The notes under the pieces: model-generated
Told to the model about the DNA's origin: nothing
Seen by the model: only the letters and a program-made list of their open reading frames with translations
Databases searched by the model: none
In this document: one piece after another, positions 55 through 32,612 of the stretch
How positions within the stretch are numbered: position 1 is the stretch's first letter
How the letters are laid out: the number at the start of each line of letters is the position of its first letter
Source: Candidatus Omnitrophota bacterium
GTDB taxonomy: Bacteria > Omnitrophota > Gorgyraeia > JABMRJ01
NCBI GenBank assembly: GCA_016783555.1
Contig: JADHWH010000001.1
Location: 16,913-80,912, forward strand
Direction: 5' to 3'
Length of the DNA: 64,000 nucleotides
Program-made: the position numbers and the translations under genes

Positions 55-585
55 TCATCTATTACCCTCGATCATTTTCTGAATAACAGGGAGAGATACA
101 ATTTGAGAAATTAATTCCTCAAAATCATCCCTTTGGGCATCATTATCTATTATAAGATCTGAGCCTTCGGGTTCAGGAAACGGGATATCCACCCCTACGA
201 CATTCTTTATCTTACCCTGAAGGGCATGAATATATAAATTATCACTGTCTCTTCTCTTTACGGTCTCTAATGACGTCTTCAAATAGACCTCTGCATACCC
301 GGGGATATTGGCACGATTCCATCTTCTCCATTCCGGAAAGATAGATAAGACGGCCGCTATGACATGAATATTCTGATCGGATAAGAACTTTGAAAGATGA
401 GAGAGGCGTTCTGCATTCTTGCGCCTTCCCCCAACAGTATGATCTACATCGTGGCCGAAGAGCTCTCTGATAAGATCCCCGTCCAACCGAACAAGATTGG
501 GTATCATCGGCTTCAATCTATCATAAAGGAGTCTTGTCAGAGTCGTCTTTCCTGATTTAGAAAGCCCTATCAACCATATAACCAT
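55..585 (-). CDS. Adenylyl-sulfate (APS) kinase-family P-loop kinase; candidate cytidine diphosphoramidate 3'-kinase (Cj1415c-like)
   Basis: The N-terminus MVIWLIGLSKSGKTTL is a Walker A motif. The 176-aa length and overall sequence are typical of CysC. It is the last gene of a 4-gene cassette that matches C. jejuni cj1418c-cj1415c in order. Confidence 0.75.
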   Translation of the reverse strand: MVIWLIGLSKSGKTTLTRLLYDRLKPMIPNLVRLDGDLIRELFGHDVDHTVGGRRKNAERLSHLSKFLSDQNIHVIAAVLSIFPEWRRWNRANIPGYAEVYLKTSLETVKRRDSDNLYIHALQGKIKNVVGVDIPFPEPEGSDLIIDNDAQRDDFEELISQIVSLPVIQKMIEGNR

Positions 586-596
586 GCATCCTCCAT

Positions 597-1340
597 CTAT
601 CTTGCCCCGATTAATAGACCGTCATTATAAAGCTGATTAGCCAACTCAAGGTCCCTTTCCGTATCCACCTCGCACCATCCGCCCTCAATGGGCATACCAT
701 AAATCGGATAGCCTTCTCTAATAAGGCGGTGCAAAAGGGTGGTCATATACATCTTATTTAAAACCTTTCTGCCCGCCTTTTGAGCTAATCTTACTATCCA
801 AGAGAGGGCCTTGGCGCTGAAGCGCATAAGGCCTATATATTGGCCCTCAATATCTTCTATATTATCGACCTTTCGTCCGATATCTTTAATCAATCCATCT
901 TGGTCAATCTTGAAACTCTCGGCGTCTTTTAAAGGGTCTCCGAAGCGCGCCTCCCAAAGTCTCTTCCACTCTAAATCATATACGACGACAGCGTCTCTCT
1001 TCTTTCTTACTAAATTACTCACGATATCTCTGTCGTAGATTATATCTGAGTAGCTTACGATTACCGGCTCATTAAACTCATTCCCAGCGCAGAGAAGACT
1101 CTTTACCATATTGGTCTTCTCCCATTCCGGATTATGCACCGTCCTTATGCCGTATCCCTCCAGCATCTGGGCGCGGTAACCGCTCACCGCTACAATCTCA
1201 TCGACTCCGGAGGACTTTAAGGTCTCTATCTGCCGCTCTAGTATAGATTTTCTACCTATAGAATTTAGACATTTAGGCTTATCCTGCGTGAACTTGCTCA
1301 AACGACTGCCTCGCCCTGCTGCCAAGATAATCGCCTTCAC
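597..1340 (-). CDS. Sugar-phosphate nucleotidyltransferase (NTP_transferase fold); candidate CTP:phosphoglutamine cytidylyltransferase (Cj1416c-like)
   Basis: KAIILAAGRGSRL is the nucleotidyltransferase signature. The start is revised to GTG at 1338-1340 (V-KAIILAAGRG), which lies in a half-copy of a junction palindrome. The ORF track instead begins at 1376. Confidence 0.7.
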   Translation of the reverse strand: MKAIILAAGRGSRLSKFTQDKPKCLNSIGRKSILERQIETLKSSGVDEIVAVSGYRAQMLEGYGIRTVHNPEWEKTNMVKSLLCAGNEFNEPVIVSYSDIIYDRDIVSNLVRKKRDAVVVYDLEWKRLWEARFGDPLKDAESFKIDQDGLIKDIGRKVDNIEDIEGQYIGLMRFSAKALSWIVRLAQKAGRKVLNKMYMTTLLHRLIREGYPIYGMPIEGGWCEVDTERDLELANQLYNDGLLIGAR

Positions 1341-1441
1341 CCAGCCCTTCCTTTCTTTTTCAACCCGCCCTTCCATTTCTTCTGCTCTCTCTTAGGAAGG
1401 GCTGGGTTCACCCAGCCCCTGCGCGCAGGGGCTGGGTTCAT
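1338..1441 (-). repeat. Second palindrome family with the same stop/start logic
   Basis: GGGCTGGGTTCACCCAGCCCCTGCGCGCAGGGGCTGGGTTCAT lies at 1399-1441. It contains the hydrolase TGA stop at 1438-1440. A half-copy CACCCAGCCC at 1338-1347 provides the nucleotidyltransferase GTG start. Confidence 0.7.
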
Positions 1442-2097
1442 AATCGCCCCTTATATAAAAGGTTGGCTATAAGCTCTTTATCAAAAGGCCTTGAAGGAGA
1501 TCTCCGTTCCGGATGCCACTGAATACCGACAATAGGCTTTTTGGGATGATAGAACCCTTCGACTACGCCTTTGGGACTCGTGGCGAAGACCTTAAATTGA
1601 TTTGAAACCGATTCCTGAAGAATTCCGTGATTATGGAAACTGTTAACCTTCATCTTGTCCGTCTTTATCAGTCTCTTAAACGGCGTATCTTCTGCTAAAT
1701 CCAGCTTATGGATAGCGCGCACATGATTCTCTTTCCTTGCCTTGCGGATGCCTCTCTTCAGGGTCCCGCCGAATAGAATATTCAATATCTGCATGCCGCG
1801 GCATACGCCCAGGATAGGTAGATTACACCCCAGTGAATATTTGACGATTCGCTCTTCAGTCTTATCGCGCCTCGGGAATTCGCCCCAGTCGCTTCCATTT
1901 GAAAGGATAACGCCGCCTATCTTTAGACCCTTCAACGTATCGATGACCGAATCGGGCTCGTTGACGAGAGGAACTAAGATGGCGTCTGGTAGAATCTCTC
2001 TTATATACTCTTCCCAGTCCTTGCTCAGGGCATCCCTCTCTTCGGAATAACCTTCATTCCGGATAACCCTCATCGTAATTCCTATTCGTTTATTCAC
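1438..2097 (-). CDS. Class I glutamine amidotransferase-like / peptidase C26 gamma-glutamyl hydrolase; candidate gamma-glutamyl-CDP-amidate hydrolase (Cj1417c-like)
   Basis: GVCRGMQ contains the catalytic Cys and HPE the His/Glu, giving the C26/PuuD family pattern. The start is revised to GTG 2095-2097 (V-NKRIGIT, a typical C26 N-terminus), which lies inside a junction element. The MNPVRPHEGSTGRR extension in the ORF track is a read-through artefact. Confidence 0.7.
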   Translation of the reverse strand: MNKRIGITMRVIRNEGYSEERDALSKDWEEYIREILPDAILVPLVNEPDSVIDTLKGLKIGGVILSNGSDWGEFPRRDKTEERIVKYSLGCNLPILGVCRGMQILNILFGGTLKRGIRKARKENHVRAIHKLDLAEDTPFKRLIKTDKMKVNSFHNHGILQESVSNQFKVFATSPKGVVEGFYHPKKPIVGIQWHPERRSPSRPFDKELIANLLYKGRL

Positions 2098-2160
2098 CCC
2101 GTTAGACCTCTCCATCATCCTTCGACCCGTTGACCCCTCATGAGGTCTAACGGGGTTCAT
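2095..2160 (-). repeat. Junction palindrome element, copy A
   Basis: CACCCCGTTAGACCTC...GAGGTCTAACGGGGTTCAT. The loop holds a degenerate third arm. On the mRNA, GGAGAGG-9nt-GTG gives the start of the downstream C26 hydrolase. Confidence 0.85.
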
Positions 2161-2163
2161 AAT

Positions 2164-4569
2164 CTACATCTCTATCGGTTCTATTCTTCTTTCGGAACAA
2201 TTAAGTTCAATGGCCCCCGAACGCAGTATATTGTCGAATATCTGCTCGCCGCAGCCTATGGCAGCGGGCAGACCAAATTCAGCGCAGCGGATTGCCATAT
2301 GAGAATTTGCTCCTCCGAATTTAGTAACGAGCCCCGATATGGGGCGCGAAAATATCCAGTCAAAACCAGGATCGGCATTCTCTATCAAAACAATCCGCTC
2401 TTCGATATCCGGCACGTTATCGTCTTTTCCTTCGATAAATACGTAAGGGGCCCTCACTATCTTCTGCGTAATAAAGTTCGGTTTATTCAAGAAGAGCGGA
2501 ACGATCGATATATCTTCAGGTCTCTCTATAATGTACGGCAGGCGTATCGATAACGTAGTTTCGTGGTTCTCCTGCCCGCGCAAAATAAGATCGCGTAAAT
2601 TCTTCTTTAAATCTTCACCCTGCGGCAGCCTGGCGGCATTTAGGATATCTTCTATATCTAAATATGAAAGCTCCTCTCTCTGGAATCCTAACGCCTTGCC
2701 CCATGATGCGATAATCTCAAGGGCGTCGCTTATATTCCTGGTAAATACAAATTTAGCATATTCCCGCGCGCTTATTGCATCTCTTATGTAGCTTAAGAAA
2801 CGTTCGGGGTCGATGTCATATTTGAACTCTTCTAAAAACGATTCTATCTTTTTTAACTTGCTTGATGAGAAGCAAAATTCATTATCGGTATCTAATTCAA
2901 CCGGCGGCCGCAGGGTCTTCTTCAATAGGTCTTCATGCTGATCGTATCTTTTGGATAAGATATTATATGTCCCCGGCCGGAGGTGGCCGTATCTTGACAT
3001 AAAGGACCGCATATCTATCTTCTTCTTTACTAAATTATCTATATCAAACACCAGACTGCTTGCAACCGTCTTTATAGACCTTTCAAAGCGCGCCGCTTCC
3101 GAAACGTCAAGGACTCCGCGCCTGATTAAAGAGCGCATAAAACTCTTTGCTATAAATGCGTGTCTCGCCAATTTGGCAAACGGGATCGTTCCCAGCTTTA
3201 TGCAATCATCGAGCAGGCTTCTGACGCATGCCAAGGCGGCCCTATCATCACGTTTGAGCAAACCATCCCTTCTCACTCGAAGCTCTTCAATCTTCTTCAA
3301 CTCGCCGCTTAAAGAGGCGGCCTTTCCGGTTAGGAGATTATTCGTAAGATTAAATAGGGCCTTTCTGAAAGCCCTCTTTTCATCATGGGTCAATACATTA
3401 GGAATCTGTTCATCCACAGAACTATCGAAATCGAACGCTAAGGCGGTTATGGCTACGTCAAATTCTATTTTATCGTGGAGCGATTTATTACTCGACAGGC
3501 GCTCCAACCAGCTATCCACTAACTTGTCGCAGATATCCGGACGCAGGCCTTCGGGCAAAAAGGAATTAAGGCTCAGGCGCACATCAATATATGGCTTGCC
3601 GGATAAAGAGACCATAAGAGATATCTCTTTGGGTTCGTTATACCCCATCTCTCTCCTTGCCTGGCGCCATGCGTAATCCGTAATAAGATAACGGTAGAGA
3701 GAAAGGGCGAGCGGCCGCGGAGAAGTCCCTATCATCTCGGCGGGGTTCCAATCCGGCATCTTACCTAAGATGGTCCTCTTGCCGTAGAGGGTCTCTTCTT
3801 TTTTATTGTAATCGTTAAAAAACGACTTCATAGATTTAATTGCATTATCGACCTTGATCTTAACTCCGGTCTTCCAGTTAGGCTGCGTGGCTATCTTCCG
3901 CACTTGAAATATATGAACTGTATTCTTTTCATCCACGGCAAATTCTATATCGAGCGAATCGCTTCCAGTTATCTTCTCTATCTCCTGAACCGATCCAAGC
4001 AATGCCTTAAAACGTTCTGACCTTAGGTCGCTTGCTGCATCACGATGGACGAGTAGAGTCCTATTGCTATTCTCTCTTCCTGCAGTCACTGTATCGGTAC
4101 GCCCTGTCTGATCATCATATGTTATAACGTAATACGGCGCTCCGGTGTTTAAATCCTGGGTAAAGAGAACGCCGCTCATCGAGACCTTATCGACCATCAG
4201 TTGAATCAATACATGATTTGCCGTATTATCGGCGTAAAAGGGCTCTCTATTATAACTATGGATGACGCGGTCTATTCCTTTACAAAGTATATCCCTCTCA
4301 TATGCAAATACATCCGGAACCGAATCATGAAAACCCGCCATAGATGAGACCTCGGTGTCTTCGCAGGCAGCGCTGGAACGTATGATAATCTTCTCTCTGC
4401 CAAAAAGGGAACTTGTCTCATCCAAAATAGCCTCGGCGTACGCCTGCCACCTATCTACATTAAAGTAATAAAATTTCGGAATAGACGATAATGAAAGCAG
4501 CGGCGCTAGGAACTCAAGCGTCTCTGCCTTTGTACCAAATTTAAATTCTCTTTCGTTTAAGGCCTTCAT
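2164..4569 (-). CDS. PEP-utilising-enzyme family three-domain kinase (PPDK/PEP-synthase-like); candidate L-glutamine kinase (Cj1418c-like)
   Basis: The 801-aa protein has an N-terminal PPDK-type nucleotide-binding region. Its C-terminal GGANSHMAIRCAEFGLPAAIGCGE is a phosphohistidine mobile-domain motif. It is the first gene of the cj1418c-like cassette. Confidence 0.7.
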   Translation of the reverse strand: MKALNEREFKFGTKAETLEFLAPLLSLSSIPKFYYFNVDRWQAYAEAILDETSSLFGREKIIIRSSAACEDTEVSSMAGFHDSVPDVFAYERDILCKGIDRVIHSYNREPFYADNTANHVLIQLMVDKVSMSGVLFTQDLNTGAPYYVITYDDQTGRTDTVTAGRENSNRTLLVHRDAASDLRSERFKALLGSVQEIEKITGSDSLDIEFAVDEKNTVHIFQVRKIATQPNWKTGVKIKVDNAIKSMKSFFNDYNKKEETLYGKRTILGKMPDWNPAEMIGTSPRPLALSLYRYLITDYAWRQARREMGYNEPKEISLMVSLSGKPYIDVRLSLNSFLPEGLRPDICDKLVDSWLERLSSNKSLHDKIEFDVAITALAFDFDSSVDEQIPNVLTHDEKRAFRKALFNLTNNLLTGKAASLSGELKKIEELRVRRDGLLKRDDRAALACVRSLLDDCIKLGTIPFAKLARHAFIAKSFMRSLIRRGVLDVSEAARFERSIKTVASSLVFDIDNLVKKKIDMRSFMSRYGHLRPGTYNILSKRYDQHEDLLKKTLRPPVELDTDNEFCFSSSKLKKIESFLEEFKYDIDPERFLSYIRDAISAREYAKFVFTRNISDALEIIASWGKALGFQREELSYLDIEDILNAARLPQGEDLKKNLRDLILRGQENHETTLSIRLPYIIERPEDISIVPLFLNKPNFITQKIVRAPYVFIEGKDDNVPDIEERIVLIENADPGFDWIFSRPISGLVTKFGGANSHMAIRCAEFGLPAAIGCGEQIFDNILRSGAIELNCSERRIEPIEM

Positions 4570-4575: not shown

Positions 4576-5304
4576 TCAGCATATCTTTCGGCGTTGGTCC
4601 TTTCTCATTAAAAATTCTGCAAATTTAAAATCGGTTTCGTCATCTATATCAATAGACCTTTCTTTAGGCATTACATATATAGCCGTCTTTTTGGATATAA
4701 TCGTATTTTCGCCGAATAGCGCCTCTCTTCTGGTTGCATATATAGCGCCGTTCGGCACATAGATATCCTCTAGATACCTCCTCAGCGTCCTCTTGCCTCT
4801 CAATGTACCGGAAAAACATAACTCGGCCCTTCTATCTTTCTTCAGTCTAAACATCCATTCTGGCGGCACCTCTGTCGCTTTTGCCGAAAAGGCTGATTGA
4901 ATGCCCTTATCCCTTATCAACATCTCTATGCATCTATCGATATCTTCAGAGTTTGCCAGCGGGGAAGTCGGCTGAAGCGTAACGGCTATATCTATCCTCC
5001 TCTTCTCTCTTGACTCGAGGAATCTCACTGCATGTTGAATAACCAGCGTGGAAGAACAACTGCCCGATATCTCCTTAGGGCGTTTAAAGGGGACCTCTGC
5101 GCCATATCTTAATGAGACCTTTTTTATCTCTGGATGGTCTGTTGAAATTATTATCCTTCTTAAGTACCTACTCATCTGTGCGGCTTTTATAACATAAGCT
5201 ATGAGAGGCCTTCCGTTCAAACCCTTAAGATTCTTTAAAGGTACTCTCTTAGAACCGCCTCTCGCGGATATTATGCCTATAATATTATAAGTATTTTTCA
5301 CCAT
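4576..5304 (-). CDS. Acylneuraminate cytidylyltransferase family (CMP-nonulosonic acid synthetase)
   Basis: IIGIISARGGSKRVPLKNL is the NeuA/LegF/PseF-type CTP_transf_3 motif. This is one of three such genes in the locus. Confidence 0.75.
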   Translation of the reverse strand: MVKNTYNIIGIISARGGSKRVPLKNLKGLNGRPLIAYVIKAAQMSRYLRRIIISTDHPEIKKVSLRYGAEVPFKRPKEISGSCSSTLVIQHAVRFLESREKRRIDIAVTLQPTSPLANSEDIDRCIEMLIRDKGIQSAFSAKATEVPPEWMFRLKKDRRAELCFSGTLRGKRTLRRYLEDIYVPNGAIYATRREALFGENTIISKKTAIYVMPKERSIDIDDETDFKFAEFLMRKDQRRKIC

Positions 5305-5310: not shown

Positions 5311-6789
5311 TTATCTTTTATGCAGGCTTTCTATTAAAGACGGATATAATATATCTGCCTCTCTCTCTTTAGAACCTATCTCTTTCTGATCAAAATCTAC
5401 CGACGAAGCTTTTATTGCGGCAAGAAACCTTAAGCCCTCTTGCGTACGTCTATTTTTGGCCTCCGCTCTACCATCCCCTGCACACAATCTGTGTAAAAGC
5501 GGGCGCAATTCTCTCCATGAACTGACCACATGCACATGGGGAAGAAAATTAAAGACATTATGGGCGCCGAATGAGATAACCGGTATGCCCGATATAGCGG
5601 CCTCTACGCCTAAGGTACTTGTGATTACCGCGACGCCGCGTGATGACTTTGCTATTCTCAGGGCATTCTCTAAGGGCGACACCATAACTACATTAGGTAT
5701 ATCCTGAATAGTCTTGTAAAAATCCCCCGGTCTTCTTCCAATGGCCAGGAGATGTTCTTTGACAGCGAGTAACGCGCCGGCAGGAAGGTTCTTGGCCATA
5801 AATTCTATGGCTGCCAGCTGCTCATTGAACTCGGGACTAAATGTACCTACGGCCATCTCCGGTTCCGTATGCAATGGATAGAAGATATACGGTTTGTCAG
5901 ATAGCTCATCTAAGCTTGCGGTCTTTAAGTTCTTCATAACCTTAGATCCTTTATGGGCCCTGTAGAGATACTTTATATTCTCAGATAACCGATAGCCGCC
6001 CATGCTGACGACCTTCTTATATCTCTTATACAGGTATGATCTTATCTGGAGTATTATTTCTTTCAACAATGTAACCTTGGAAGACTTCTTTAAAAACCTT
6101 TGGTAAACACCCTTGATATACGACTCCTCTATCGGACCATTGAGGTCCTCTTCGTCGACGAATTCATCTATATTTTTAATATCCGCGAAATTCTTCTTTA
6201 CCTCTGGGGAGGAATAGTATTCATCGACAACCCAATAATGGCGCGATCTGTATTTAGCGCCGTTAAATATGCGCACGGGGATGCTTCTATGCCTTGCAAC
6301 GGCCATAAATATCTTGCCTATTATTCCTACCTGCAAACCTATCACTAAGTCGGGTTTAGTCTTATCCAGATAATCCTCCCAAAATTTAAATATCTTGTTG
6401 AATATATTTACCGATTTTATATAGCTTGCCTTATCGCTTAAATGCGACCTTGGGTGGCCTGTTCCAGCGGCGGAAAAACCACGCCCTAAGTGCCTATCGG
6501 TCTGGAGGGCATCGACTGCATATACGTTATACCTATCCTCGTAATATCGAGCCTTATCATAAATATCTTGAGCCGCTTCCTGGCATCTGTCATACTCGTT
6601 GAAAAAATGGTTTATTGTCACATATGTATCTATCACACCTTCACGATCTAGGCCTCTCCAATATTCCACGCTCTGGGGGCTGCTGCATATAAAATGGATC
6701 TTAACATTCTCTCTCGCCTTAAGCTCTTTTAAAAATGGTATATGGAGCCAATAATATACCGCAAATCCCCATACAACTACGTTTTCCAC
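5311..6789 (-). CDS. Capsule-polysaccharide-biosynthesis family protein (KpsS/KpsC/LpsZ-like); putative CMP-sugar-dependent glycosyltransferase
   Basis: PYIFYPLHTEPE and GVAVITSTLGVEAAISGIPVISFG resemble Capsule_synth motifs. The start is revised to GTG 6787-6789, inside a junction element. Confidence 0.45.
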   Translation of the reverse strand: MENVVVWGFAVYYWLHIPFLKELKARENVKIHFICSSPQSVEYWRGLDREGVIDTYVTINHFFNEYDRCQEAAQDIYDKARYYEDRYNVYAVDALQTDRHLGRGFSAAGTGHPRSHLSDKASYIKSVNIFNKIFKFWEDYLDKTKPDLVIGLQVGIIGKIFMAVARHRSIPVRIFNGAKYRSRHYWVVDEYYSSPEVKKNFADIKNIDEFVDEEDLNGPIEESYIKGVYQRFLKKSSKVTLLKEIILQIRSYLYKRYKKVVSMGGYRLSENIKYLYRAHKGSKVMKNLKTASLDELSDKPYIFYPLHTEPEMAVGTFSPEFNEQLAAIEFMAKNLPAGALLAVKEHLLAIGRRPGDFYKTIQDIPNVVMVSPLENALRIAKSSRGVAVITSTLGVEAAISGIPVISFGAHNVFNFLPHVHVVSSWRELRPLLHRLCAGDGRAEAKNRRTQEGLRFLAAIKASSVDFDQKEIGSKEREADILYPSLIESLHKR

Positions 6790-6842
6790 CCCGTTAGACC
6801 TCCTCACCCCATTGACCTCTCATGAGGTCTAACGGGGTCCAT
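6787..6842 (-). repeat. Junction palindrome element, copy B
   Basis: The same arms, with a third arm CACCCCATTGACCTC in the loop. GAGGAGG-9nt-GTG gives the start of the KpsS-like gene. Confidence 0.85.
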
Positions 6843-6850: not shown

Positions 6851-7807
6851 CTAATGCTTATGATTTGCCGTGCACGGTTCACACAGGGTCTTAGAAAAAT
6901 TAAGCCTCTTATGCCTCTCTCTTAATGCGTTTAGCTCCTTTGACTGCCAAAGTTCCTTTAATGACCTATCCCGTATATTCCCTATAACCAAAACGCCGTT
7001 ATAATCCTGACAACAGACAGTTACATCGCCGTTCCAGAAGACCGACAGGCGCAGCCATAATTGGGGGCATGGTCTCTTGGAAAGCTTCTTATAATCTACC
7101 ATCGATTCCTTAAGTATCTCGGGATTCCCGTCTACAGATGTGATATTAGTCACTGAGATAAAATCTACGGCGTCTTTGAACTTATCCACAAAGAGAGGGA
7201 TATCATTACAGTTACTCTTCATGCGAATGAATTGGAGCGTAAGCAGGGGTTTCTTGCCAATGGGTTTTATCTTGATAAAGTCTTCTATATTCTTTATGGT
7301 AGTCTCAAATTTCGCGCCTCTTCTTTTGTTCTCATAATCGTCTTTAACCATGCTCTCTACCGAAAATGTAATCCTATCGAGGCCGCACTCAACAAGCCTG
7401 CGGGCATTCTCCTCTGTCACAAGTGTTGCGTTTGTATTAAATTGGGTATGGATTCGATTTTTTTTGGCGTATCTTACCATATTAAAGATCTCTTTATGGA
7501 GTATCGATTCGCCCCATAGGTTCAATTTTACGGAGGTTATTCGATATTCGGCGCATTGGTCGATTATCCTACAAAAGAGGCCGTAGTCCATATATCCTAT
7601 TTTGCGGGTCATCATATTCCTCTCGCACATGGAGCACTTTAGGTTGCAGGCGTTGGTCACTTCTATGTCCACATGAAGGGGGGCCTCGGTTAGATAGAGA
7701 CTTCTGGCGCATGAGTCCCACATCTTGCGGAATTCCTTATACTCTCTATCCGCAATTTCAGTATTCGAGCTGACAACCTGAAAATAGTCGCTAATTTCTC
7801 TTTTCAT
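6851..7807 (-). CDS. Radical SAM protein with C-terminal SPASM-like Cys cluster
   Basis: CNLKCSMC is a CxxxCxxC cluster. There is a Cys-rich C-terminus (CPQLW...VCCQDYNG...CEPC). Confidence 0.75.
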   Translation of the reverse strand: MKREISDYFQVVSSNTEIADREYKEFRKMWDSCARSLYLTEAPLHVDIEVTNACNLKCSMCERNMMTRKIGYMDYGLFCRIIDQCAEYRITSVKLNLWGESILHKEIFNMVRYAKKNRIHTQFNTNATLVTEENARRLVECGLDRITFSVESMVKDDYENKRRGAKFETTIKNIEDFIKIKPIGKKPLLTLQFIRMKSNCNDIPLFVDKFKDAVDFISVTNITSVDGNPEILKESMVDYKKLSKRPCPQLWLRLSVFWNGDVTVCCQDYNGVLVIGNIRDRSLKELWQSKELNALRERHKRLNFSKTLCEPCTANHKH

Positions 7808-7808: not shown

Positions 7809-8870
7809 TTATATTAATTTGTCTGTATACTTCTTATATTCTTCCCATTGGCCTATATCTACGTAGGACCTCTGGCTTACGGGATAGACCCCGACATTCT
7901 CCTTCTTCTCAAGGAGCACGTTTATAAAATCCGTCATATCAAAATGTTTCTCCTCGGGCATGTGGCTAATCGCGTCTTTTGATAAGACGTACGCTCCGGT
8001 ATTCACCGTAAAGTCGAATTCCGGTTTTTCATGAATTTGGCTTATCTTTCCCTCTTCTTTATAATGTATAATCCCGTAAGGCATCTTATGGTGCTGTATC
8101 GAGCCCACAACCGTCAATAGATTATTGTTCTTTTTGTGGAACTTCACAAGGTCGGCGTAATCGGCGTCCACTATGATATCGCAATTCGACACTATAAAAG
8201 TATCTTTGATGGTCTGCGGTAGAAGCTTGAGGCTTCCGGCCGTGCCTAAAAACTCCTCTTCCCAGGTGTATTCTATCGTGTAATCTTTTTCTATACTGTC
8301 GAAGTAGTTCTTTACCATCTCTCCTTTGTAATTCAGCGTGACATAGAAACGCTCTACCCCCTGGCGCCTGAATTTTTCTATTATTATCTCTATAATAGGT
8401 TTCTCGCCGATCGGTATAAGGGGCTTCGGCAGTATCTTTGTAAACGGATCGAGCCTATCGCCCTTGCCGCCCGCCATTATCACCACGGGCACGTCTGTCT
8501 TTGTGTAATATGAGTTTTCTTTGCCGAAGATGTCGCTGTAAAAAAAGACCTCAAGGATATTCTTCTTTTTATCGACAACAGGTATTATATCGATAGATTT
8601 CTCAAGCATAATCCTCTTTGCCTCTTCGGTATTGTTGTTGCCATCCAGGATAAAGATAGGCGTGCGGTTAAAGCATGTCGTGATCTTCTCCTTGAGATCG
8701 CCCGTCTTTAACACTCTTCTCCTGATATCACCGTCTGTAAGCGAACCCAATAATGAACCGTCGCCATTACAGATAAATAGTATCCTTCGCCCCGTTTCAT
8801 CAATTAATTTGAGCGCCTCTTTTATCGACAGGTCTTCTTTTACTTTAATCTTTGATATAATATCTTTCAT
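7809..8870 (-). CDS. CBS-pair domain + sugar-1-phosphate nucleotidyltransferase (PtmE-like, GDP-sugar route of legionaminic acid synthesis)
   Basis: The N-terminal ~120 aa are CBS-like. VVIMAGGKGDRLDPFTKILPKPLIPIG is the nucleotidyltransferase motif. The architecture matches C. jejuni PtmE (GlcN-1-P guanylyltransferase). Confidence 0.65.
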   Translation of the reverse strand: MKDIISKIKVKEDLSIKEALKLIDETGRRILFICNGDGSLLGSLTDGDIRRRVLKTGDLKEKITTCFNRTPIFILDGNNNTEEAKRIMLEKSIDIIPVVDKKKNILEVFFYSDIFGKENSYYTKTDVPVVIMAGGKGDRLDPFTKILPKPLIPIGEKPIIEIIIEKFRRQGVERFYVTLNYKGEMVKNYFDSIEKDYTIEYTWEEEFLGTAGSLKLLPQTIKDTFIVSNCDIIVDADYADLVKFHKKNNNLLTVVGSIQHHKMPYGIIHYKEEGKISQIHEKPEFDFTVNTGAYVLSKDAISHMPEEKHFDMTDFINVLLEKKENVGVYPVSQRSYVDIGQWEEYKKYTDKLI

Positions 8871-9430
8871 CTTCTCTTATATTCCTCCTTTAACATGGCC
8901 ATCCTTATGGAGCTGAAATATCTCCCTTCTCTATATATCTCATCTTTAAGTTCGCCCTCTCTTATGAATCCCATCTTCTCATAAAATCTTACGGCCTTTG
9001 TATTAGGCGCCGCCACCCCAAGCCAGACTTTATTTAGATTTAAGACACCAAAGGCGAACCTTAACATAAATTCCGTTGCCTCTTCCGCAAGGCCTTTACC
9101 CCAAAATGCCTTCTCGCCGATATGTATAGTATATTCGGCAGAGCGTATCTGCCAGCTTAAGTGGTGCAGGCCTATAATACCTATGGATTTTTCTGTCTCC
9201 CTATCTACGATCGCAAAGATGACATTATCTTTTTTGCTTAAATCCTCATACAGCCTCTCCATAGCCTCTCTTGTTGTCGGTCTTATACCGTGGCTCAGAT
9301 ACTTATTAAACTCCGGGTCGTTGGCCCATTTATGCATCCTCTCGGTGTAGTCTTCTCTCTCTATCGGGCGCAAGGTTATCTTATCTCCTCTGTAAAAATA
9401 GGGCGTTATATTCTTATCTCTGTCTGACAT
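8867..9430 (-). CDS. GNAT family N-acetyltransferase (RimL-like)
   Basis: GNAT fold motifs (IGIIGLHH...WGKGLAEEA...RFYEKMGF). It overlaps the upstream gene by 4 bp. Confidence 0.7.
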   Translation of the reverse strand: MSDRDKNITPYFYRGDKITLRPIEREDYTERMHKWANDPEFNKYLSHGIRPTTREAMERLYEDLSKKDNVIFAIVDRETEKSIGIIGLHHLSWQIRSAEYTIHIGEKAFWGKGLAEEATEFMLRFAFGVLNLNKVWLGVAAPNTKAVRFYEKMGFIREGELKDEIYREGRYFSSIRMAMLKEEYKRR

Positions 9431-9442
9431 TCTATACCTCCC

Positions 9443-10144
9443 TTATCTCTTGGATATAAGAGATTTGATCTTCTCCAGGTCCTCGATAGTATCGACATCC
9501 ATGGATATCTTTCTATTCATAACCAGCACCCCGCAATCTTTCGATATAATAGCCTTTTCGTTAAAGAGTGTCTCTCTCTTCGTAACATATATAGCGCCGT
9601 TAGGCTGGTATGTCTTTGGAAGCTGCTGGCTCTCCTTCCTGAAATAATCTGTCCCGTCATTAACAAGAGGGAAGGCCCGGTTCTTCTTTACGTGCACTAC
9701 CCAATAGGGGGGATATGCCGTCTCCATAACACTCATCAGGGAACCGCACCCCGATCTCTTTAGGATCTCTATCGCTTTATCTATATGGTCTTTCGTCCTT
9801 AACGGGGATGTGGGCTGCAAGGTCACAATAAGATCTATCCCGTAGCCTCTCTTTTCAATAAAATTTACCGCATGTTCTATTACCGGGGGGGTATGGGTAG
9901 AGTCTTGCGCAAGGTGTTTCGGCCTCATAAAAGGCACTTCAGCGCCGTGTTCTTCAGAGACTTTCGCGATCTCTTCGTTATCGGTAGTCACTATAACCCT
10001 GTCGGTATAGGCGCTCTTTAATGCCGCCTCTATCGTATATGCTATAAGCGGTCTCCCGCAGAGATCTATAATATTTTTACCCGGCAGGCCCTTCGATCCT
10101 CCCCTTGCGGGTATCACTGCAACAACCTTTAACTTCCCAATCAT
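9443..10144 (-). CDS. Acylneuraminate cytidylyltransferase (CMP-legionaminic/neuraminic acid synthetase-like)
   Basis: KVVAVIPARGGSKGLPGKNI is the family signature. The start is revised to ATG at 10142-10144, because the ORF track's N-terminal extension runs into a palindrome cluster. Confidence 0.75.
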   Translation of the reverse strand: MIGKLKVVAVIPARGGSKGLPGKNIIDLCGRPLIAYTIEAALKSAYTDRVIVTTDNEEIAKVSEEHGAEVPFMRPKHLAQDSTHTPPVIEHAVNFIEKRGYGIDLIVTLQPTSPLRTKDHIDKAIEILKRSGCGSLMSVMETAYPPYWVVHVKKNRAFPLVNDGTDYFRKESQQLPKTYQPNGAIYVTKRETLFNEKAIISKDCGVLVMNRKISMDVDTIEDLEKIKSLISKR

Positions 10145-10162
10145 CTTATCTTTGCTCCTCTC

Positions 10163-10298
10163 GTCATTGCGAGCGATTGCTTCGCCCGTCATTGCGAGCC
10201 AGCCGAAGGCTGGCGAAGCAATCTGGGACGGGCTCGCAACAGGCTGCGTTCGCGAAGCAATCTCTTAAGATTGCTTCGCCCCTTCGGGGCTCGCAATG
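10163..10298. repeat. Intergenic cluster of nested short palindromes, built from two alternating units
   Basis: The units are TCATTGCGAG(C) and GATTGCTTCGC, which recur in both orientations. The first unit is forward at 10163 and 10188 and reverse at 10288. The second unit is forward at 10174 and 10268 and reverse at 10212 and 10251. There are two local perfect hairpins: GCCAGCC-GAA-GGCTGGC at 10197-10213, and GCGAAGCAATC-TCTTAA-GATTGCTTCGC at 10251-10278. A CCCC-TTC-GGGG hairpin sits at 10278-10288. Confidence 0.7.
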
Positions 10299-10340
10299 AA
10301 ATTCGGCCGTATGATTTACGCTCCTTTACAGTCGCGTAAA

Positions 10341-11555
10341 TCATGGCCTTATTTCACCTATATTGTCAAATATTTTTTTAACTGCGCTTACGATATCCTT
10401 CATGTCTTCTATATTATATGGGTAGTGCATGGCCGTTATACATATCAACCTGCGGCAGACATCTTCAGCAACTCTGCATTTAATACCTCCAAAGCCGGCT
10501 TCTTTTAATTTCTCCTTGAATATGGGTGTCTTATATAGAGGTTGAGGGTATCCGCGTGAGAGCGTTATCCCTTCGGATTCCATAAGCTCTATAAATCTAT
10601 CCTTCGCGACGCCTATCTCTCTCTCATTATATAAAATGGGATATAGATGAGAAATCTCACCTTCTTTGTATCTCATAACCTCAAGCCCGCTGAATCTACC
10701 CAATTCTTTCTGGAGGTAAGAGACGTTCTTTCTTCTTATCTCGTTTAATGAGTCGAGCTTCTTTAACTGTTCTATGCCGAGCGCCGCGTGTATCTCGGTC
10801 ATCCTGAAGTTATACCCTAATATATTTGAGATATACTCTCTCGGCCTCCCCTTGGTCCAGACCTCACCGTGATTTCGTATAAGGCGGCACCTATCGGCAA
10901 TCTCATCCGAATTCGTCGTCACCATCCCGCCTTCGCCTATAACCATATTCTTTGTCTCGACAAAGCTGAATACCCCAGCGTCGCCTATCGAGCCGACCAT
11001 GCGGCCTTCGTGCTTACAACCGGGCGACTGGCACGCGTCTTCTATTACCTTAAGGCTATCTTCTTTTGCTATAGCCAAAATCTCGTCCATATTGCATACC
11101 TTGCCGTAGATATGGACCGGGACTATTGCCTTGGTCTTTTTGGTTATGGCCGCTTTAATCTTCTTAGGATCTATACAAAATGTATCCGGTTCAATATCCG
11201 CAAAGACGGTAGCCGCACCTACCATCAACACTGAAGAAGCAGTAGCGGTAAAGGTAAACGGCGGCACTATCACTTCGTCTCCGGGGCCGATATTGCAAGC
11301 GGCGAGGGCCGCGTGGAGCGCCGATGTGCCAGAATTGAATACTATCGCATATCGGGTTCCTATATATTTTGCAAAATCTTTTTCAAACTTCTGTACCATC
11401 TCACCGCCGAGGAAATCCTTATAAAATCCAGATAGACTCTTCTTTCTTAGAACCTTATTTACAGAAGCTATCTCTTCATCTCCGATTGGCGCGGAATAAT
11501 CAAACCTTTTCTCCCGGGTCTTTTTGCCGCCATGAATAAATAATCTCTCTTTCAC
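10341..11555 (-). CDS. DegT/DnrJ/EryC1/StrS family PLP-dependent sugar aminotransferase
   Basis: The sequence is DegT-family throughout (GTSALHAAL...FSF...NFRMTEIHAALG). The GTG start at 11553-11555 is supplied by a junction element. Confidence 0.8.
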   Translation of the reverse strand: MKERLFIHGGKKTREKRFDYSAPIGDEEIASVNKVLRKKSLSGFYKDFLGGEMVQKFEKDFAKYIGTRYAIVFNSGTSALHAALAACNIGPGDEVIVPPFTFTATASSVLMVGAATVFADIEPDTFCIDPKKIKAAITKKTKAIVPVHIYGKVCNMDEILAIAKEDSLKVIEDACQSPGCKHEGRMVGSIGDAGVFSFVETKNMVIGEGGMVTTNSDEIADRCRLIRNHGEVWTKGRPREYISNILGYNFRMTEIHAALGIEQLKKLDSLNEIRRKNVSYLQKELGRFSGLEVMRYKEGEISHLYPILYNEREIGVAKDRFIELMESEGITLSRGYPQPLYKTPIFKEKLKEAGFGGIKCRVAEDVCRRLICITAMHYPYNIEDMKDIVSAVKKIFDNIGEIRP

Positions 11556-11616
11556 CCCGTTAGACCTCCCTATCTATTTTCCCCATCAGCCTCTTATGAG
11601 GTCTAACGGGGTTCAT
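11553..11616 (-). repeat. Junction palindrome element, copy C
   Basis: It carries the upstream oxidoreductase TGA stop and the downstream aminotransferase GTG start, with GGGAGG as the SD. Confidence 0.85.
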
Positions 11617-12674
11617 TCTAACCTTCCGTTTTTTGTAAAAGATGTCTCTCGCGGAATCAGTCTTAAGCTCCTATCCTTAAGGGGTAAGGTAATCTTTTTG
11701 GTCTTCTCTCTATCCGATTCGTGAAATGCCATGGCTACCTCAACCGTTGCCATCCCATCTTCGCCCGTGCATAAAGGAGGTTCTTTATTGTCTAAAACAT
11801 TTACTATATTTCTGACCGCATTGAGCATAGGCGGAGTCCACCTTGAGCTCTTTAAGTTTGCTCTTCTCAACTCTTTTATGCCGCTCTCCTTGCGGCTCGC
11901 CTGCGCCTTTAAGAGTCTGTATGCATCGTCTCTTCTAATCTGACCGCCTAAATCTATCATACCCTTCTGGCCGTATATATTTGCGCCGAATAAGACATAC
12001 TCCCTGAAGCCCGAGTAGAAGAAAGTCAGGATATCGTTCTTAAACCTTACAGTCCCCCTTCCGCCAGGATCAGTGCTTCCATCCGGAATGAGCGCCCCGG
12101 AGACAGAGAGCACATCACCGAAGTAATACCGCAGGATATCGAATAGATGTGTGCCGCTATTCATAAGCCCAGCCGCAGCAAAGGCGATTATTAGATCCAC
12201 CTTTCCTATATCGCCTTTATCCAGCATGCCCTTTACGTCATTAAATGATCTGTCCCATCTCCTTGTATGGTTAACCATAAGTACGGTCTTGTTTCTCTTG
12301 CAGACTCTTATCATCTCGTCGGCCTCTTCAAGCGATGCAGCTATAGGTTTCTCGCAGAATATGGCTCGGACGCCGGCCGCGCTTGCGGCTCCACAGACCT
12401 CTTTATGCAATGTGGTGGGGGTAGCGATGCTGACGATATCAAGATCTACCTTTTTCAACATCTTCCTGTAATCCGTATAGATATTTTTTATATCATACTT
12501 CTTCGATATGCCCTTAAGCTTCTCTCTATCAAGATCGCATACCGCACTAAACTCGGTCTTTTTATTGAGAAGATAAGCCTCAGCGTGGCTAACAGGCTGG
12601 TCTGCCAGCCTGTCCTCGTTGAATAACCAACCCATTCTGCCGCAACCGATTATTCCCACTCTGTACTTTCTCAT
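11613..12674 (-). CDS. Gfo/Idh/MocA family NAD(P)-dependent oxidoreductase
   Basis: YRVGIIGCGRMG is an N-terminal Rossmann motif. The sequence carries the EKP motif (FCEKPIA). The stop TGA at 11613-11615 lies inside a junction element. Confidence 0.7.
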   Translation of the reverse strand: MRKYRVGIIGCGRMGWLFNEDRLADQPVSHAEAYLLNKKTEFSAVCDLDREKLKGISKKYDIKNIYTDYRKMLKKVDLDIVSIATPTTLHKEVCGAASAAGVRAIFCEKPIAASLEEADEMIRVCKRNKTVLMVNHTRRWDRSFNDVKGMLDKGDIGKVDLIIAFAAAGLMNSGTHLFDILRYYFGDVLSVSGALIPDGSTDPGGRGTVRFKNDILTFFYSGFREYVLFGANIYGQKGMIDLGGQIRRDDAYRLLKAQASRKESGIKELRRANLKSSRWTPPMLNAVRNIVNVLDNKEPPLCTGEDGMATVEVAMAFHESDREKTKKITLPLKDRSLRLIPRETSFTKNGRLE

Positions 12675-13876
12675 ATCCTTTTGCCTCTCCTCCTATTCTT
12701 TACGGGTAATTCAAAATCCAAATCAAGGAACCTCTTCTTTGAGGTAATGTTGTCAAGCCCTCTTACTATGCCAACAATCTTCCTCGACGTACTCCCGTCT
12801 CCATAAGGGTTTATTATTTCTTTACAGGTCTTTCTAAAATCGCTGGAGAGGGCCTTTCTAAATGCCCTCTTCAAAGACCCTCGTCCTTCCTTCACATCAA
12901 TGACAGTGTCGGCTCTGACCCTGCCTCTCTGTCTATCGCCGATATTTATCGTGGGTATCCCAAATGACGGCGCCTCGATTATGCCGCTCGATGAATTGCC
13001 TGCTACCACGTCCATATGAAAGAGTGTGTTTAGATAGAGCTGGCGGCCCATCGATGAAAAAGATTTGGCGCTCTCTCTATTATTATAAATGTACATATCT
13101 ATCATCTTTTCAATCGTGTCGTAGTAGATATCTACGTTCGGTTTCGTAAATATAACCTTCGCGTCTTTCAATAGAGCCAAGGCGTCTAAGAGGCCTTTAA
13201 ATTCGCTTACCGTCTTATCTCTGCTCTCTTGCGTAGACGGATTATATGTCACCATTATATTATTCTTACCTAATCTAAAATCTATCCTTTTTTCAAGTTC
13301 ATTCTTCTTTAAAGGTTTTATTCTCTTTATGTTGTCGAGCCCCAGCGCGCCTACATTGAATACTCTCTTGGGCTCTTCGCCCATCTGTATAACCCTCTTT
13401 CTATATATATCAGTCGATACAAAATGGAGGTGTGATATCTTTGTTATGGCATGCCTAAGAGAGTCATCCATTGAGCCCTCCGTAAGCTCCCCGCCATGTA
13501 TATGGGCGATGGGAACTTTAAGAAAGAATGCCGCTTGCGCAGCCGTGAATGTCTCGAACCTATCCCCCAATAAAAATAGAAGCTCTGGCCTTAATATATT
13601 CAAGACGTCCGTAAGCCTTGTGACCCCGATGCCTACCGTCTTTGCTATAGCCTCCTCTCTATCTTCCTCAAGGGGCATGGCAATTTTTGCGTCTATCTCG
13701 AAACCGTCATCTTCTATCTCCTTATAGGTTAAACCGGACTCAGGCATCAGGTGTCCTGCCGTTGCTACCAATTTAAGGTCTAATCTTCTATCCTTCTTTA
13801 TCTGGCTTGCCAGCGGATATAACAAGCCCCATTCTGCCCTGCTCCCTGTTATGATACAAACCTTCTTTTTCTTCAC
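12671..13876 (-). CDS. UDP/GDP-N-acetylglucosamine 2-epimerase (hydrolysing), NeuC/LegG-like
   Basis: KKVCIITGSRAEWGLLYPL is the NeuC N-terminal signature. The start is revised to GTG 13874-13876 inside a junction element, whereas the ORF track begins at 13894. Confidence 0.8.
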   Translation of the reverse strand: MKKKKVCIITGSRAEWGLLYPLASQIKKDRRLDLKLVATAGHLMPESGLTYKEIEDDGFEIDAKIAMPLEEDREEAIAKTVGIGVTRLTDVLNILRPELLFLLGDRFETFTAAQAAFFLKVPIAHIHGGELTEGSMDDSLRHAITKISHLHFVSTDIYRKRVIQMGEEPKRVFNVGALGLDNIKRIKPLKKNELEKRIDFRLGKNNIMVTYNPSTQESRDKTVSEFKGLLDALALLKDAKVIFTKPNVDIYYDTIEKMIDMYIYNNRESAKSFSSMGRQLYLNTLFHMDVVAGNSSSGIIEAPSFGIPTINIGDRQRGRVRADTVIDVKEGRGSLKRAFRKALSSDFRKTCKEIINPYGDGSTSRKIVGIVRGLDNITSKKRFLDLDFELPVKNRRRGKRI

Positions 13877-13929
13877 CCCGTTAGACCTCCTCACCCCGTT
13901 GACCTCTCATGAGGTCTAACGGGGTTCAT
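13874..13929 (-). repeat. Junction palindrome element, copy D
   Basis: It carries the NeuD-NeuB TGA stop and the NeuC-like GTG start, with GAGGAGG as the SD. The loop holds a third arm CACCCCGTTGACCTC. Confidence 0.85.
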
Positions 13930-15584: not shown

Positions 15585-16654
15585 ATGTAATCTATATCAT
15601 CTGGCGTGTTGAGAGTAGAGCTCGGCAGGGAAAGGCCCCTATTGTAAATATCAAATGAGTTTTTATAATCTCTTTTTTTGTAACTCTTATAAGGCGGAAA
15701 TTCGATTACCGGAGTAAATATCCTTCTCGTAGGTATGCCTCTATCCACAAGTCTTTTCTGCAAGACCGCTATATCCATATCCTTTTCAAATAGAATAGAA
15801 TTAAGCCAGTATGCGCTCTCTGCATTCTCATGAACCTCTTGAAAACGTATAGACTCTATACTCTTTAGTTCCTGGCGGTATATCTCATTAAAAAGCTTCT
15901 TCTTGTTTAAAAATTCATCCAGCCTTTCTAACTGAGCAAGACCCAGGGCGGCCTCTATATTCGTCATCCTGTCGTTAAAACCTATCTCGGGATGATAATA
16001 CTCTTTAGAGTTATCCCTCGCTTGATTCACCAGAAACTTTATGTGATTTAAGCTATCCACATTTTTCCCTACCACCATACCACCGCCGCCCGTAGTGATA
16101 ATCTTATTTCCATTAAAGCTGAAACATCCGAAGTTGCCGATAGTGCCCGTATGTCTTGAGCCATATCTTGCGCCCAGGCTCTCTGTTGCGTCCTCTATTA
16201 CGTATATATTATGGTCCCTTGCCACCTTCATAATGCCTTCCATATCGCAGGGGTTGCCGTATATATGGACCGGTATCACCGCCTTTGTCTTTTTTGTGAT
16301 ATTCCTCTCTATCTCTTTAACGTCTATATTCCACGTCAGGGGATCTACGTCTACGAATACAGGAGTAGCGCCTTCATATATTACGGGATTTACGGTTGCG
16401 ATAAAGGTAAGCGCGGGGACTATTACCTCGTCTCCGGCGCCTATGCCGAGTTCATGCAGGGCTATGTGTATAGCCGCGGTCCCGCTCTGTGTCGAGGCGG
16501 CGTCTCTTATGCCCAGATACCCGGCGAACCTCTTTTCAAACTCGGTTACAAAAGGGCCGACTGTGGATACAAAGTTAGCGTCTATGGCTCTGTTTAAATA
16601 GCCCTTTTCCAGATCACCGAGATTCGGCGCGTCTAAATGCATCTTTTTACACAT
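15557..16654 (-). CDS. DegT-family sugar aminotransferase (LegC/PglE-like)
   Basis: DegT-family sequence. It overlaps the downstream gene by 28 bp. Confidence 0.8.
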   Translation of the reverse strand: MCKKMHLDAPNLGDLEKGYLNRAIDANFVSTVGPFVTEFEKRFAGYLGIRDAASTQSGTAAIHIALHELGIGAGDEVIVPALTFIATVNPVIYEGATPVFVDVDPLTWNIDVKEIERNITKKTKAVIPVHIYGNPCDMEGIMKVARDHNIYVIEDATESLGARYGSRHTGTIGNFGCFSFNGNKIITTGGGGMVVGKNVDSLNHIKFLVNQARDNSKEYYHPEIGFNDRMTNIEAALGLAQLERLDEFLNKKKLFNEIYRQELKSIESIRFQEVHENAESAYWLNSILFEKDMDIAVLQKRLVDRGIPTRRIFTPVIEFPPYKSYKKRDYKNSFDIYNRGLSLPSSTLNTPDDIDYICKALKEVM

Positions 16655-27442: not shown

Positions 27443-27446
27443 ATTA

Positions 27447-28463: not shown

Positions 28464-28466
28464 CGC

Positions 28467-29777: not shown

Positions 29778-29778
29778 C

Positions 29779-31455: not shown

Positions 31456-31458
31456 ATT

Positions 31459-32601: not shown

Positions 32602-32612
32602 CGCCCCTCAAT

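Follow-up and report, generated by a model that had tools for sequence, protein, structure and literature searches.

A widespread gene cassette predicted to form a phosphoramidate donor, found beside nonulosonate genes in an Omnitrophota glycan locus

Is the machinery for phosphoramidate decoration of surface glycans a peculiarity of Campylobacter? The question is raised by a 64-kb stretch of DNA from a Candidatus Omnitrophota bacterium (contig JADHWH010000001.1, positions 16,913 to 80,912; called the window below), which has at one end a cassette of four genes resembling those that make the phosphoramidate donor in Campylobacter jejuni. In that organism Cj1418 is an L-glutamine kinase, Cj1416 a CTP:phosphoglutamine cytidylyltransferase, Cj1417 a γ-glutamyl-CDP-amidate hydrolase (CDP, cytidine diphosphate) and Cj1415 a cytidine diphosphoramidate kinase, and the O-methyl phosphoramidate (MeOPN) pathway also includes the methyltransferases Cj1419 and Cj1420 and the transferases Cj1421 and Cj1422. 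It is concluded here that the four window genes probably encode the donor-forming half of a phosphorus–nitrogen (P–N) glycan-modification pathway, homologous to the route from Cj1418 through Cj1417 and Cj1416 to Cj1415. Compared with the donor pathway, the transfer step and the acceptor are proposed with much less confidence.

The window has four consecutive minus-strand open reading frames (ORFs) here (Table 1), with exactly the boundaries given in an earlier reading made from the letters of the window without database searches (the sequence-only reading). The gaps between them, from the 801-residue gene onward, are 3, 61 and 11 nt. Campylobacter sequences for comparison were found by searching a metagenome collection for the exact 21-mer of the cj1420 reverse-transcription PCR primer CS-1246 (PMC3907429). 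This gave two Campylobacter-like contigs of 28% G+C, L085 and L086, which between them hold genes resembling Cj1416 to Cj1422; the Cj1415 gene was not found in the DNA of these contigs that was examined. The identity of the contigs is validated by scores above the NCBIfam cut-offs: the Cj1417-like protein reaches 316 bits against NF045546 (γ-glutamyl-CDP-amidate hydrolase, cut-off 250), the Cj1422-like protein 714 bits against NF058596 (O-methyl phosphoramidate transferase, Pfam DUF2972, cut-off 600) and the Cj1418-like protein 1113 bits against NF004508 (cut-off 501). The last of these models is titled "hypothetical protein", and given the score of the Cj1418-like protein it represents the glutamine-kinase family.

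Searches with tblastn in both directions paired only the cognate genes for Cj1416, Cj1417 and Cj1418, at 32–38% identity. The transcriptional order also agrees, as the sequence-only reading had proposed: L086 has the order 1418, 1417, 1416, as in the window, and cj1415 lies downstream of cj1416 (PMC3907429).

The 801-residue protein is 32% identical to the Cj1418-like protein over about 800 residues (E 1e-126 to 3e-135) and scores 898 bits against NF004508. Its three domains are an ATP-grasp/PPDK_N domain, a central one and a swivelling phosphohistidine domain that carries His757, and the phosphohistidine motif quoted in the sequence-only reading, GGANSHMAIRCAEFGLP, is indeed present at residues 752–768. 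The string GGANSHMAIR is identical in the window and Campylobacter kinases, and N755, S756, H757 and M758 are invariant across 14 diverse members of the family, which over its whole length has a mean column identity of 59% across phyla. Homologues carry the Joint Genome Institute (JGI) name "glutamine kinase".

The 240-residue protein is the sole match in the window to the Cj1417-like protein (33% identity, E 3e-26 to 8e-26). Its triad of C120, H216 and E218 is invariant in an alignment with Campylobacter and four other loci, and the catalytic residues of both kinase and hydrolase are thus conserved. The ORF listed is the longest possible reading; homologues start near its residue 24 (MRIGIT), and the protein may really begin at an internal position, around residue 15–24. 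The 259-residue protein is 38% identical to the Cj1416-like protein over 252 residues (E 1e-49 to 8e-55). This pairing is unique in both directions, and the other nucleotidyltransferases of the window do not match the Cj1416-like protein. The closest solved structure is LicC (1jyk), at 59 bits only.

The 176-residue protein scores 170 bits against NF004041 (cut-off 127), and relatives that are 62–71% identical to it carry the JGI name "cytidine diphosphoramidate kinase". Its AlphaFold2 model is confident (predicted local distance difference test, pLDDT, 93) and has the fold of adenosine 5'-phosphosulfate (APS) kinases, with template modelling (TM) scores of 0.83–0.88 against solved APS kinases, to which its sequence is 25–31% identical; a fold search of the PDB matched APS kinases only. 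The APS-binding motifs of APS kinases, DGDNxR and FISPY, are altered in it to DGDLIR and LSIFPEW. Its gene is linked to the glutamine kinase gene in 61 of the 80 loci described below. On the basis of fold, NF004041 score, names of relatives and linkage, the protein is a candidate equivalent of Cj1415. Sequence searches of the PDB with all four window proteins found superfamily neighbours only, and no structure of Cj1415 to Cj1418.

The sequence-only reading took phosphoramidate glycan modification to be essentially confined to Campylobacter. At the level of genes this fails. When one genome was scanned for each GTDB species, at least 589 loci were confirmed (at least 599 stretches matched), in more than 12 phyla. 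Relatives of the kinase number more than 5,700 in the protein database at E ≤ 1e-10, with full-length matches of about 50% identity in Planctomycetes, Peregrinibacteria, Magnetococcales, Rhodospirillales and Rhodobacterales, many of them under the JGI name "glutamine kinase", and an exhaustive HMMER pass over 1.84 billion cluster representatives found 1,599 kinase clusters (clusters at 50% identity) at E ≤ 1e-30. Counts of loci given here rest on the best 80 of the at least 589, none of which is from Campylobacter. They include Omnitrophota, Planctomycetota, Peregrinibacteria, Alpha-, Beta- and Gammaproteobacteria, Desulfovibrionales, Bacteroidota, Verrucomicrobiota, Actinomycetota, Bacillota, Chloroflexota, Acidobacteriota, Myxococcota and one plasmid. 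Among the cultured carriers are Shewanella maritima (L036), Aeromonas sanarellii LMG 24682 (L032), Alteromonas ponticola (L043), Denitromonas ohlonensis (L019) and Methyloversatilis universalis EHg5 (L016), the last with its cassette in a locus of the legionaminic-acid type.

All four core genes occur together in 57 of the 80 loci, and 31 loci have exactly the gene order and strand of the window. Since these are loci of other species, the four-gene arrangement is not due to chance; the incomplete cassettes are mostly on short contigs. The hydrolase is kept with an intact triad in 70 loci, immediately beside the nucleotidyltransferase. The window kinase is 39–63% identical to the kinases of the 80 loci and the Campylobacter kinase only 30–36%, which makes Campylobacter the outlier of a mainly environmental family. 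The window copy is an ordinary member of this large and hardly studied family.

Many of the kinase relatives are about 1000–1100 residues long, with an N-terminal extension of about 240 residues (P0264, P0283, P0330 and others). In two of three examples, those in which Pfam detected a domain there, the extension is an NTP_transf_3 (Cj1416-like) domain. Some relatives of about 1000 residues are thus natural fusions of the cytidylyltransferase and the kinase, which unite the first two pathway steps in one protein.

Clustering of all ORFs in the loci revealed three architectures. In type A (8 loci and the window), the small kinase is followed by an SGNH-like family of 415 residues and a methyltransferase of a family designated cl8. 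Type B (about 30 loci) also has the cl8 methyltransferase, and at the SGNH position has an unknown 194-residue protein and a formyltransferase-like protein that keeps its HxH and Asp motifs. The third, Cj-type architecture has a methyltransferase of the Cj1419/Cj1420 type, a kind of protein found in 13 of the 80 loci. The idea that the SGNH-like protein is a fusion of the formyltransferase-like and 194-residue pair was rejected (hhalign probability below 1%).

The window copy does not end with the small kinase. The next minus-strand gene starts at position 58, with an overlap of 4 nt with the small-kinase stop, and is cut by the window edge after 19 codons (MILLYIIFAIAVFEIGLIL). Its continuation was read in the parent contig, L081, for about 10 kb past window position 1. 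There it proves to encode a membrane-anchored SGNH-fold protein, followed by genes for a cl8-family methyltransferase, for a membrane protein resembling CDP-alcohol phosphotransferases (Pfam CDP-OH_P_transf) and for a second KpsS-like transferase. The nearest Omnitrophota genome (L001) has the same run of SGNH, methyltransferase and CDP-OH_P_transf genes after its cassette, and in Propionivibrio (L015) these three genes accompany it in another order. The SGNH-fold membrane-anchored family has 823 members, named "hypothetical"; those of type A cassettes show translational coupling with the small kinase.

Possible transferases were sought with hidden Markov models (HMMs) in the 52 of the 80 loci that are well covered (at least 15 kb each), counting neighbours within 8 kb. 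CDP-OH_P_transf proteins were found in 10 loci, TagF-like proteins in 7, sulfotransferase-like proteins in 6 and sulfatase-superfamily proteins in 5. All four are folds for the transfer of phospho or sulfo groups. Exactly one of them is present in 28 loci and two in none; the probability of finding no double occurrence is about 0.008 under independence, with phylogeny ignored. Most of these candidate genes abut a core gene. In the CDP-OH_P_transf-like protein of the locus, the CDP-alcohol motif D-x2-DG-x2-AR...D is conserved save for the final Asp.

The KpsS-like paralogues that flank the cassette were also considered as counterparts of Cj1421 and Cj1422. They were rejected, because they have no similarity to DUF2972 and only one homologue in the 80 loci, and because their family, PF05159, is linked in the literature to nonulosonate transfer (PMC4487303).

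In the Peregrinibacteria locus L003 (14436–17004) the genes after the cassette encode a sulfatase-superfamily protein and a protein of the inositol-monophosphatase/CysQ family. This phosphatase could recycle a 3',5'-bisphosphocytidine by-product, which fits a donor resembling 3'-phosphoadenosine-5'-phosphosulfate (PAPS). Within the window, a 512-residue protein (17629–19167, minus strand) has a methyltransferase domain that weakly matches the HMMs of both the cl8 and the Cj1419/Cj1420 type; it lies 13 kb from the cassette, within the legionaminic-acid gene set.

The surroundings of the cassette form one long minus-strand glycan island of about 40 kb. Legionaminic- and pseudaminic-type pathways do neighbour the cassette, as the sequence-only reading had it (Table 1). 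In the former, four proteins exceed their NCBIfam cut-offs: LegB (TIGR04180, 495 bits), LegC (TIGR04181, 424), NeuB (TIGR03569, 486) and NeuC (TIGR03568, 436). Only 6 nt separate the glutamine kinase gene from an upstream gene for a PseF/LegF-like CMP-nonulosonate synthetase, beyond which lies the gene for a KpsS/Gtr59-like protein. This protein shows no similarity to the Campylobacter MeOPN transferases in tblastn searches, and from its family it is a probable CMP-nonulosonate glycosyltransferase: PF05159 proteins beside nonulosonic acid (NulO) modules in Acinetobacter have been predicted to be NulO transferases (PMC4487303). The presence of such proteins on both sides of the cassette suggests a nonulosonate-containing polysaccharide.

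The association recurs elsewhere. Apart from the cassette accessories, the commonest neighbours in the 80 loci are DegT aminotransferases (25), NeuB (19), LegB-like proteins (15), NeuC (12), PseF (12) and PtmE (9). Of the 52 well-covered loci, 20 have one or more of NeuB, NeuC, PseF and PtmE within 8 kb. NulO genes are present at this distance in 18 of 33 loci with type A or B accessories, versus none of 8 loci of the Cj type.

The island also has radical-SAM genes at 6851–7807 and 38481–39932 (minus strand) and at 39975–41696 (plus strand), one of which has a SPASM domain. The PtmE-like and KpsS-like genes flank the SPASM radical-SAM gene, of which a Planctomycetales locus (L005) has a homologue directly upstream of the kinase. 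Past the island (46660–57094) are an ORF of 1584 residues (46660–51414), an IS200-like Y1 transposase (51455–52150), a DUF1846 protein and an ORF of 1066 residues (53894–57094).

Table 1. Genes and gene sets in the window, in the adjoining part of its parent contig L081, and in the Campylobacter-like contigs L085 and L086 (positions are those of the window unless a contig is named)
Feature	Position	Strand	Details
L-glutamine kinase homologue (Cj1418 family)	2164-4569	minus	801 aa; Pfam PPDK_N and PEP-utilizers
γ-Glutamyl-CDP-amidate hydrolase homologue (Cj1417 family)	1438-2160	minus	240 aa; Pfam Peptidase_C26/GATase
CTP:phosphoglutamine cytidylyltransferase homologue (Cj1416 family)	597-1376	minus	259 aa; Pfam NTP_transf_3/NTP_transferase
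Candidate cytidine diphosphoramidate 3'-kinase (Cj1415 role)	55-585	minus	176 aa; P-loop; Pfam APS_kinase
Membrane-anchored SGNH-fold protein	L081:10528-11775; first 19 codons at window 58-1	minus	415 aa; no Pfam match
SAM (S-adenosylmethionine) methyltransferase (cl8 family)	L081, after SGNH gene		263 aa
CDP-alcohol-phosphotransferase-like membrane protein (CDP-OH_P_transf)	L081, after methyltransferase gene		270 aa
Second KpsS-like transferase	L081:13368-14894		508 aa; 50% identical to the protein of 5311-6807
PseF/LegF-like CMP-nonulosonate synthetase	4576-5304	minus	Pfam CTP_transf_3; TIGR03584 PseF 154 bits, below cut-off of 205.7
KpsS/Gtr59-like (Capsule_synth) protein	5311-6807	minus	498 aa; Pfam PF05159
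Legionaminic-acid-type pathway	7809-17708	minus	PtmE-like CBS-nucleotidyltransferase, GNAT, PseF-like, aminotransferase, GFO oxidoreductase, NeuC, NeuD-NeuB fusion, LegC, LegB
Second, complete pseudaminic-type pathway	25948-33596	minus	PseB-like, PseC-like, aldo-keto-reductase-cytidylyltransferase fusion, class III aminotransferase, PseG-like GT28, GNAT, NeuB-family synthase
Campylobacter-like contig	L085		hddA-gmhA2-hddC, then Cj1422-, Cj1421-, Cj1420- and Cj1419-like genes
Campylobacter-like contig	L086		Cj1420-, Cj1419-, Cj1418-, Cj1417- and Cj1416-like genes

We propose the following scheme, in which the chemistry of each step is taken over from the characterised Campylobacter enzymes; at the window locus the homology is observed and the activities are predicted from it. 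The 801-residue protein would act as an L-glutamine kinase to give phosphoglutamine, which the 259-residue nucleotidyltransferase would combine with CTP to give CDP-L-glutamine. The 240-residue hydrolase (Cys120/His216/Glu218) would then take off glutamate to leave cytidine diphosphoramidate, and the 176-residue enzyme with the APS-kinase fold would phosphorylate its 3'-OH to produce an activated donor resembling PAPS. The CDP-OH_P_transf-like protein may move the phosphoramidate onto a hydroxyl, displacing the cytidine nucleotide; it is given this role because members of its family catalyse reactions of that type. The methyltransferase may then complete a MeOPN-like group. The acceptor, which is the weakest step, would probably be a sugar in the nonulosonate-containing polysaccharide that the surrounding genes specify.

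A number of points weigh against this scheme. We know of no enzyme activity or glycan chemistry for any member outside Campylobacter, and at only 32–38% identity to the Campylobacter enzymes the substrates could differ. The direct comparison covered the Cj1416-, Cj1417- and Cj1418-like proteins, not Cj1415, and the hydrolase, whose best NCBIfam match is NF045546, reaches only 103 bits there, where the cut-off is 250. In tblastn searches of the window and of L081, no match at E < 1e-3 was obtained with Cj1421/Cj1422-like (DUF2972) transferases or with Cj1419/Cj1420-type SAM methyltransferases, and DUF2972 has no match in any of the 80 loci. With these Campylobacter proteins absent, the downstream half of the pathway is drawn from gene context alone, and the description of the cassette as "complete Campylobacter-type" in the sequence-only reading was an overstatement, since neither kind has a homologue in the window or the adjoining 10 kb. 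None of the four candidate transferase families is within 8 kb in 24 of the 52 well-covered loci. The CDP-OH_P_transf-like protein of the window operon has Gly in place of the last Asp of the CDP-alcohol motif. Donors that lack a 3'-phosphate are the norm for CDP-alcohol phosphotransferases, and their acceptors are often lipids, which is awkward to reconcile with a conserved 3'-kinase. Finally, the SGNH-fold protein is tightly linked to the cassette and yet has no role in the scheme.

Could the four genes instead be housekeeping enzymes that are adjacent by accident, namely a phosphoenolpyruvate (PEP) synthase (PpsA), a PuuD-type hydrolase, a GlmU/RmlA-type nucleotidyltransferase and a CysC APS kinase? 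The sequence-only reading had itself named such assignments as the ones that would overturn it. Each protein does fall in the corresponding Pfam superfamily, NCBI uses the names "pyruvate phosphate dikinase" and "adenylyl-sulfate kinase", and the closest solved structures are PEP synthase, a Listeria C26 protein and PuuD, LicC, and APS kinases. However, all four proteins fall below the curated cut-offs for these enzymes: 35–47 bits against 598–976 for the PEP synthase models, 48 against 266 for PuuD, 112 against 139 for apsK (TIGR00455), at most 28 against at least 367 for GlmU, and below 65 against 290–720 for GlmU/RmlA/GalU-type models. The 801-residue kinase is above the equivalog cut-off of NF004508, the linkage of the four genes is kept across phyla, there is no sulfate adenylyltransferase gene among the annotated neighbours, and the APS-binding motifs are altered. 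We regard this explanation as extremely improbable and effectively refuted. A different proposal is that the enzymes belong to the same families and lead to another end product, either because a different amide or amine is phosphorylated, or because a CDP-linked intermediate such as CDP-glutamine is used directly; the CDP-OH_P_transf-like or TagF-like enzyme would then put on a phospho-amino-acid or another phosphodiester decoration. The low identity to the Campylobacter enzymes and the score of the hydrolase below its equivalog cut-off would allow this, as would accessory genes wholly unlike those of Campylobacter (SGNH, or the formyltransferase-like and 194-residue proteins, and a different methyltransferase). 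Transfer of phospho-alcohols from CDP-X donors is the canonical reaction of the CDP-OH_P_transf and TagF-like families, and the Clostridioides difficile literature cites the same nucleotidyltransferase family, with a CDP-activated phospho-threonine route proposed for the type A flagellar glycan. Nevertheless, the retention of a triad-intact hydrolase in 70 of the 80 loci argues for removal of glutamate and formation of the amidate, the 3'-kinase is retained too, and the conservation of the kinase across phyla suggests a single substrate. Another end product is unlikely.

The closest competitor accepts the donor pathway as proposed and disputes only the acceptor, which could be another polysaccharide sugar, a lipid or a lipid-linked carrier, the pseudaminic- and legionaminic-acid genes merely sharing the island. 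The acceptors in Campylobacter (GalfNAc and heptose) are not nonulosonates (PMC3907429). No NulO gene is within 8 kb in 32 of the 52 well-covered loci, including all 8 of the Cj type; the CDP-alcohol phosphotransferases commonly act on lipids; and the island encodes further glycosyltransferase-like and modifying genes. Against this, the commonest non-accessory neighbour families all belong to the NulO pathway, no general glycosyltransferase family ranks higher, and the CMP-NulO synthetase gene directly precedes the kinase gene both in the window and in L001. An acceptor other than a nonulosonic acid is a strong possibility, to be taken almost as seriously as its opposite. Phosphoramidate on nonulosonic-acid glycans, as suggested by the sequence-only reading, is plausible, and the co-location with NulO genes recurs in 20 of the 52 well-covered loci. 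Returning to the donor pathway and taking all parts together, it is conceivable, and we suggest it only tentatively, that the non-Campylobacter cassettes form a widespread family for P–N decoration of surface glycans, with at least two architectures (A and B), preferentially in legionaminic- or pseudaminic-acid loci, in which transfer would be carried out by interchangeable CDP-OH_P_transf, TagF-like, sulfotransferase-like or sulfatase-superfamily enzymes instead of DUF2972.

The experimental literature treats MeOPN as a Campylobacter speciality, a picture at odds with the sequence data, in which environmental bacteria from many phyla commonly have the donor pathway. The kinase has been described in a review as specific to C. 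jejuni (PMC9561416), and according to a review of 2019 Campylobacter is the sole known source of the modified sugars (PMC6429109). Within the genus, MeOPN extends to other species (PMC3907429). In the literature searched, no paper was found on a broad distribution, on alternative accessory genes or on an association with NulO. Annotation is systematically misleading: NCBI mostly uses "pyruvate phosphate dikinase" and "adenylyl-sulfate kinase", and NF004508 is still a "hypothetical protein", while pipelines based on KEGG Orthology (KO) label the proteins correctly. Because the donor pathway is so common, the single cassette in the window is unremarkable in itself, and its interest lies in the family-wide pattern that it exposes. 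P–N-decorated glycans are predicted well beyond Campylobacter, cultured strains included, which raises the question of which enzymes transfer phosphoramidate where DUF2972 is absent. If phosphoramidate-type groups are indeed carried on nonulosonate glycans, they would be a new class of structure, present in such cultured genera as Methyloversatilis, Shewanella, Aeromonas and Alteromonas.

Compared with the MeOPN system of C. jejuni, the window has homologues of Cj1418, Cj1417 and Cj1416 in the same order, then a gene for a protein with the APS-kinase fold, and it too is a surface-glycan locus. It differs in the low identity of the enzymes (32–38%) and in lacking both the DUF2972/NF058596 transferase and the Cj1419/Cj1420-type methyltransferase; in their stead are an SGNH-fold membrane protein, a protein resembling CDP-alcohol phosphotransferases and another SAM methyltransferase. 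The cassette is set among genes for nonulosonate biosynthesis, as against a heptose/kps capsule locus in Campylobacter. A Cj1416–1418-like cluster has been described in a surface-glycan region of the Borg elements of Methanoperedens (bioRxiv 10.1101/2024.11.05.622173), and this has the same trio of glutamine kinase, cytidylyltransferase and hydrolase, outside Campylobacter as in the window. The Borg cluster differs in being on an archaeal element, in its structure-based annotation and in a PEP-mutase fusion, and it comes with no described 3'-kinase and no survey of distribution or of accessory genes. In the Campylobacter-like contig L086 (5729–9188, 28.6% G+C) the Cj1416-like gene is directly followed by a cytidylyltransferase–PEP-mutase fusion, a phosphonopyruvate-decarboxylase-like gene and an iron-alcohol-dehydrogenase-like ORF, so that phosphonate genes lie beside phosphoramidate genes, as has likewise been noted for Borgs.

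There is also a likeness to CDP-activated decorations, such as phosphocholine (LicC/LicD), CDP-glycerol (TagF), C. difficile cd0241–cd0244 and the CDP-alcohol phosphotransferases. In these, as in the scheme proposed, a LicC-like nucleotidyltransferase makes a CDP-X donor, and the cassette is adjoined by a CDP-alcohol-phosphotransferase-like protein in the window operon or a TagF-like protein in 7 well-covered loci. To our knowledge no member of the LicD, TagF or CDP-alcohol-type transferase families transfers phosphoramidate. The cassette is unlike these systems in that X would be NH2, obtained by hydrolysis of CDP-glutamine, and in that the donor would be further phosphorylated at the 3' position. 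This last feature recalls sulfate activation, in which CysC makes PAPS for a sulfotransferase and CysQ recycles the resulting 3'-phosphoadenosine 5'-phosphate (pAp). The differences are the 25–31% identity to solved APS kinases, the altered motifs and the predicted transfer of phosphoramidate, not sulfate. The likeness extends from the APS-kinase fold and, by analogy, a 3'-phospho-nucleoside-diphospho donor, to the sulfotransferase-like gene that lies beside the cassette in 6 related loci and the CysQ/inositol-monophosphatase-family gene in L003.

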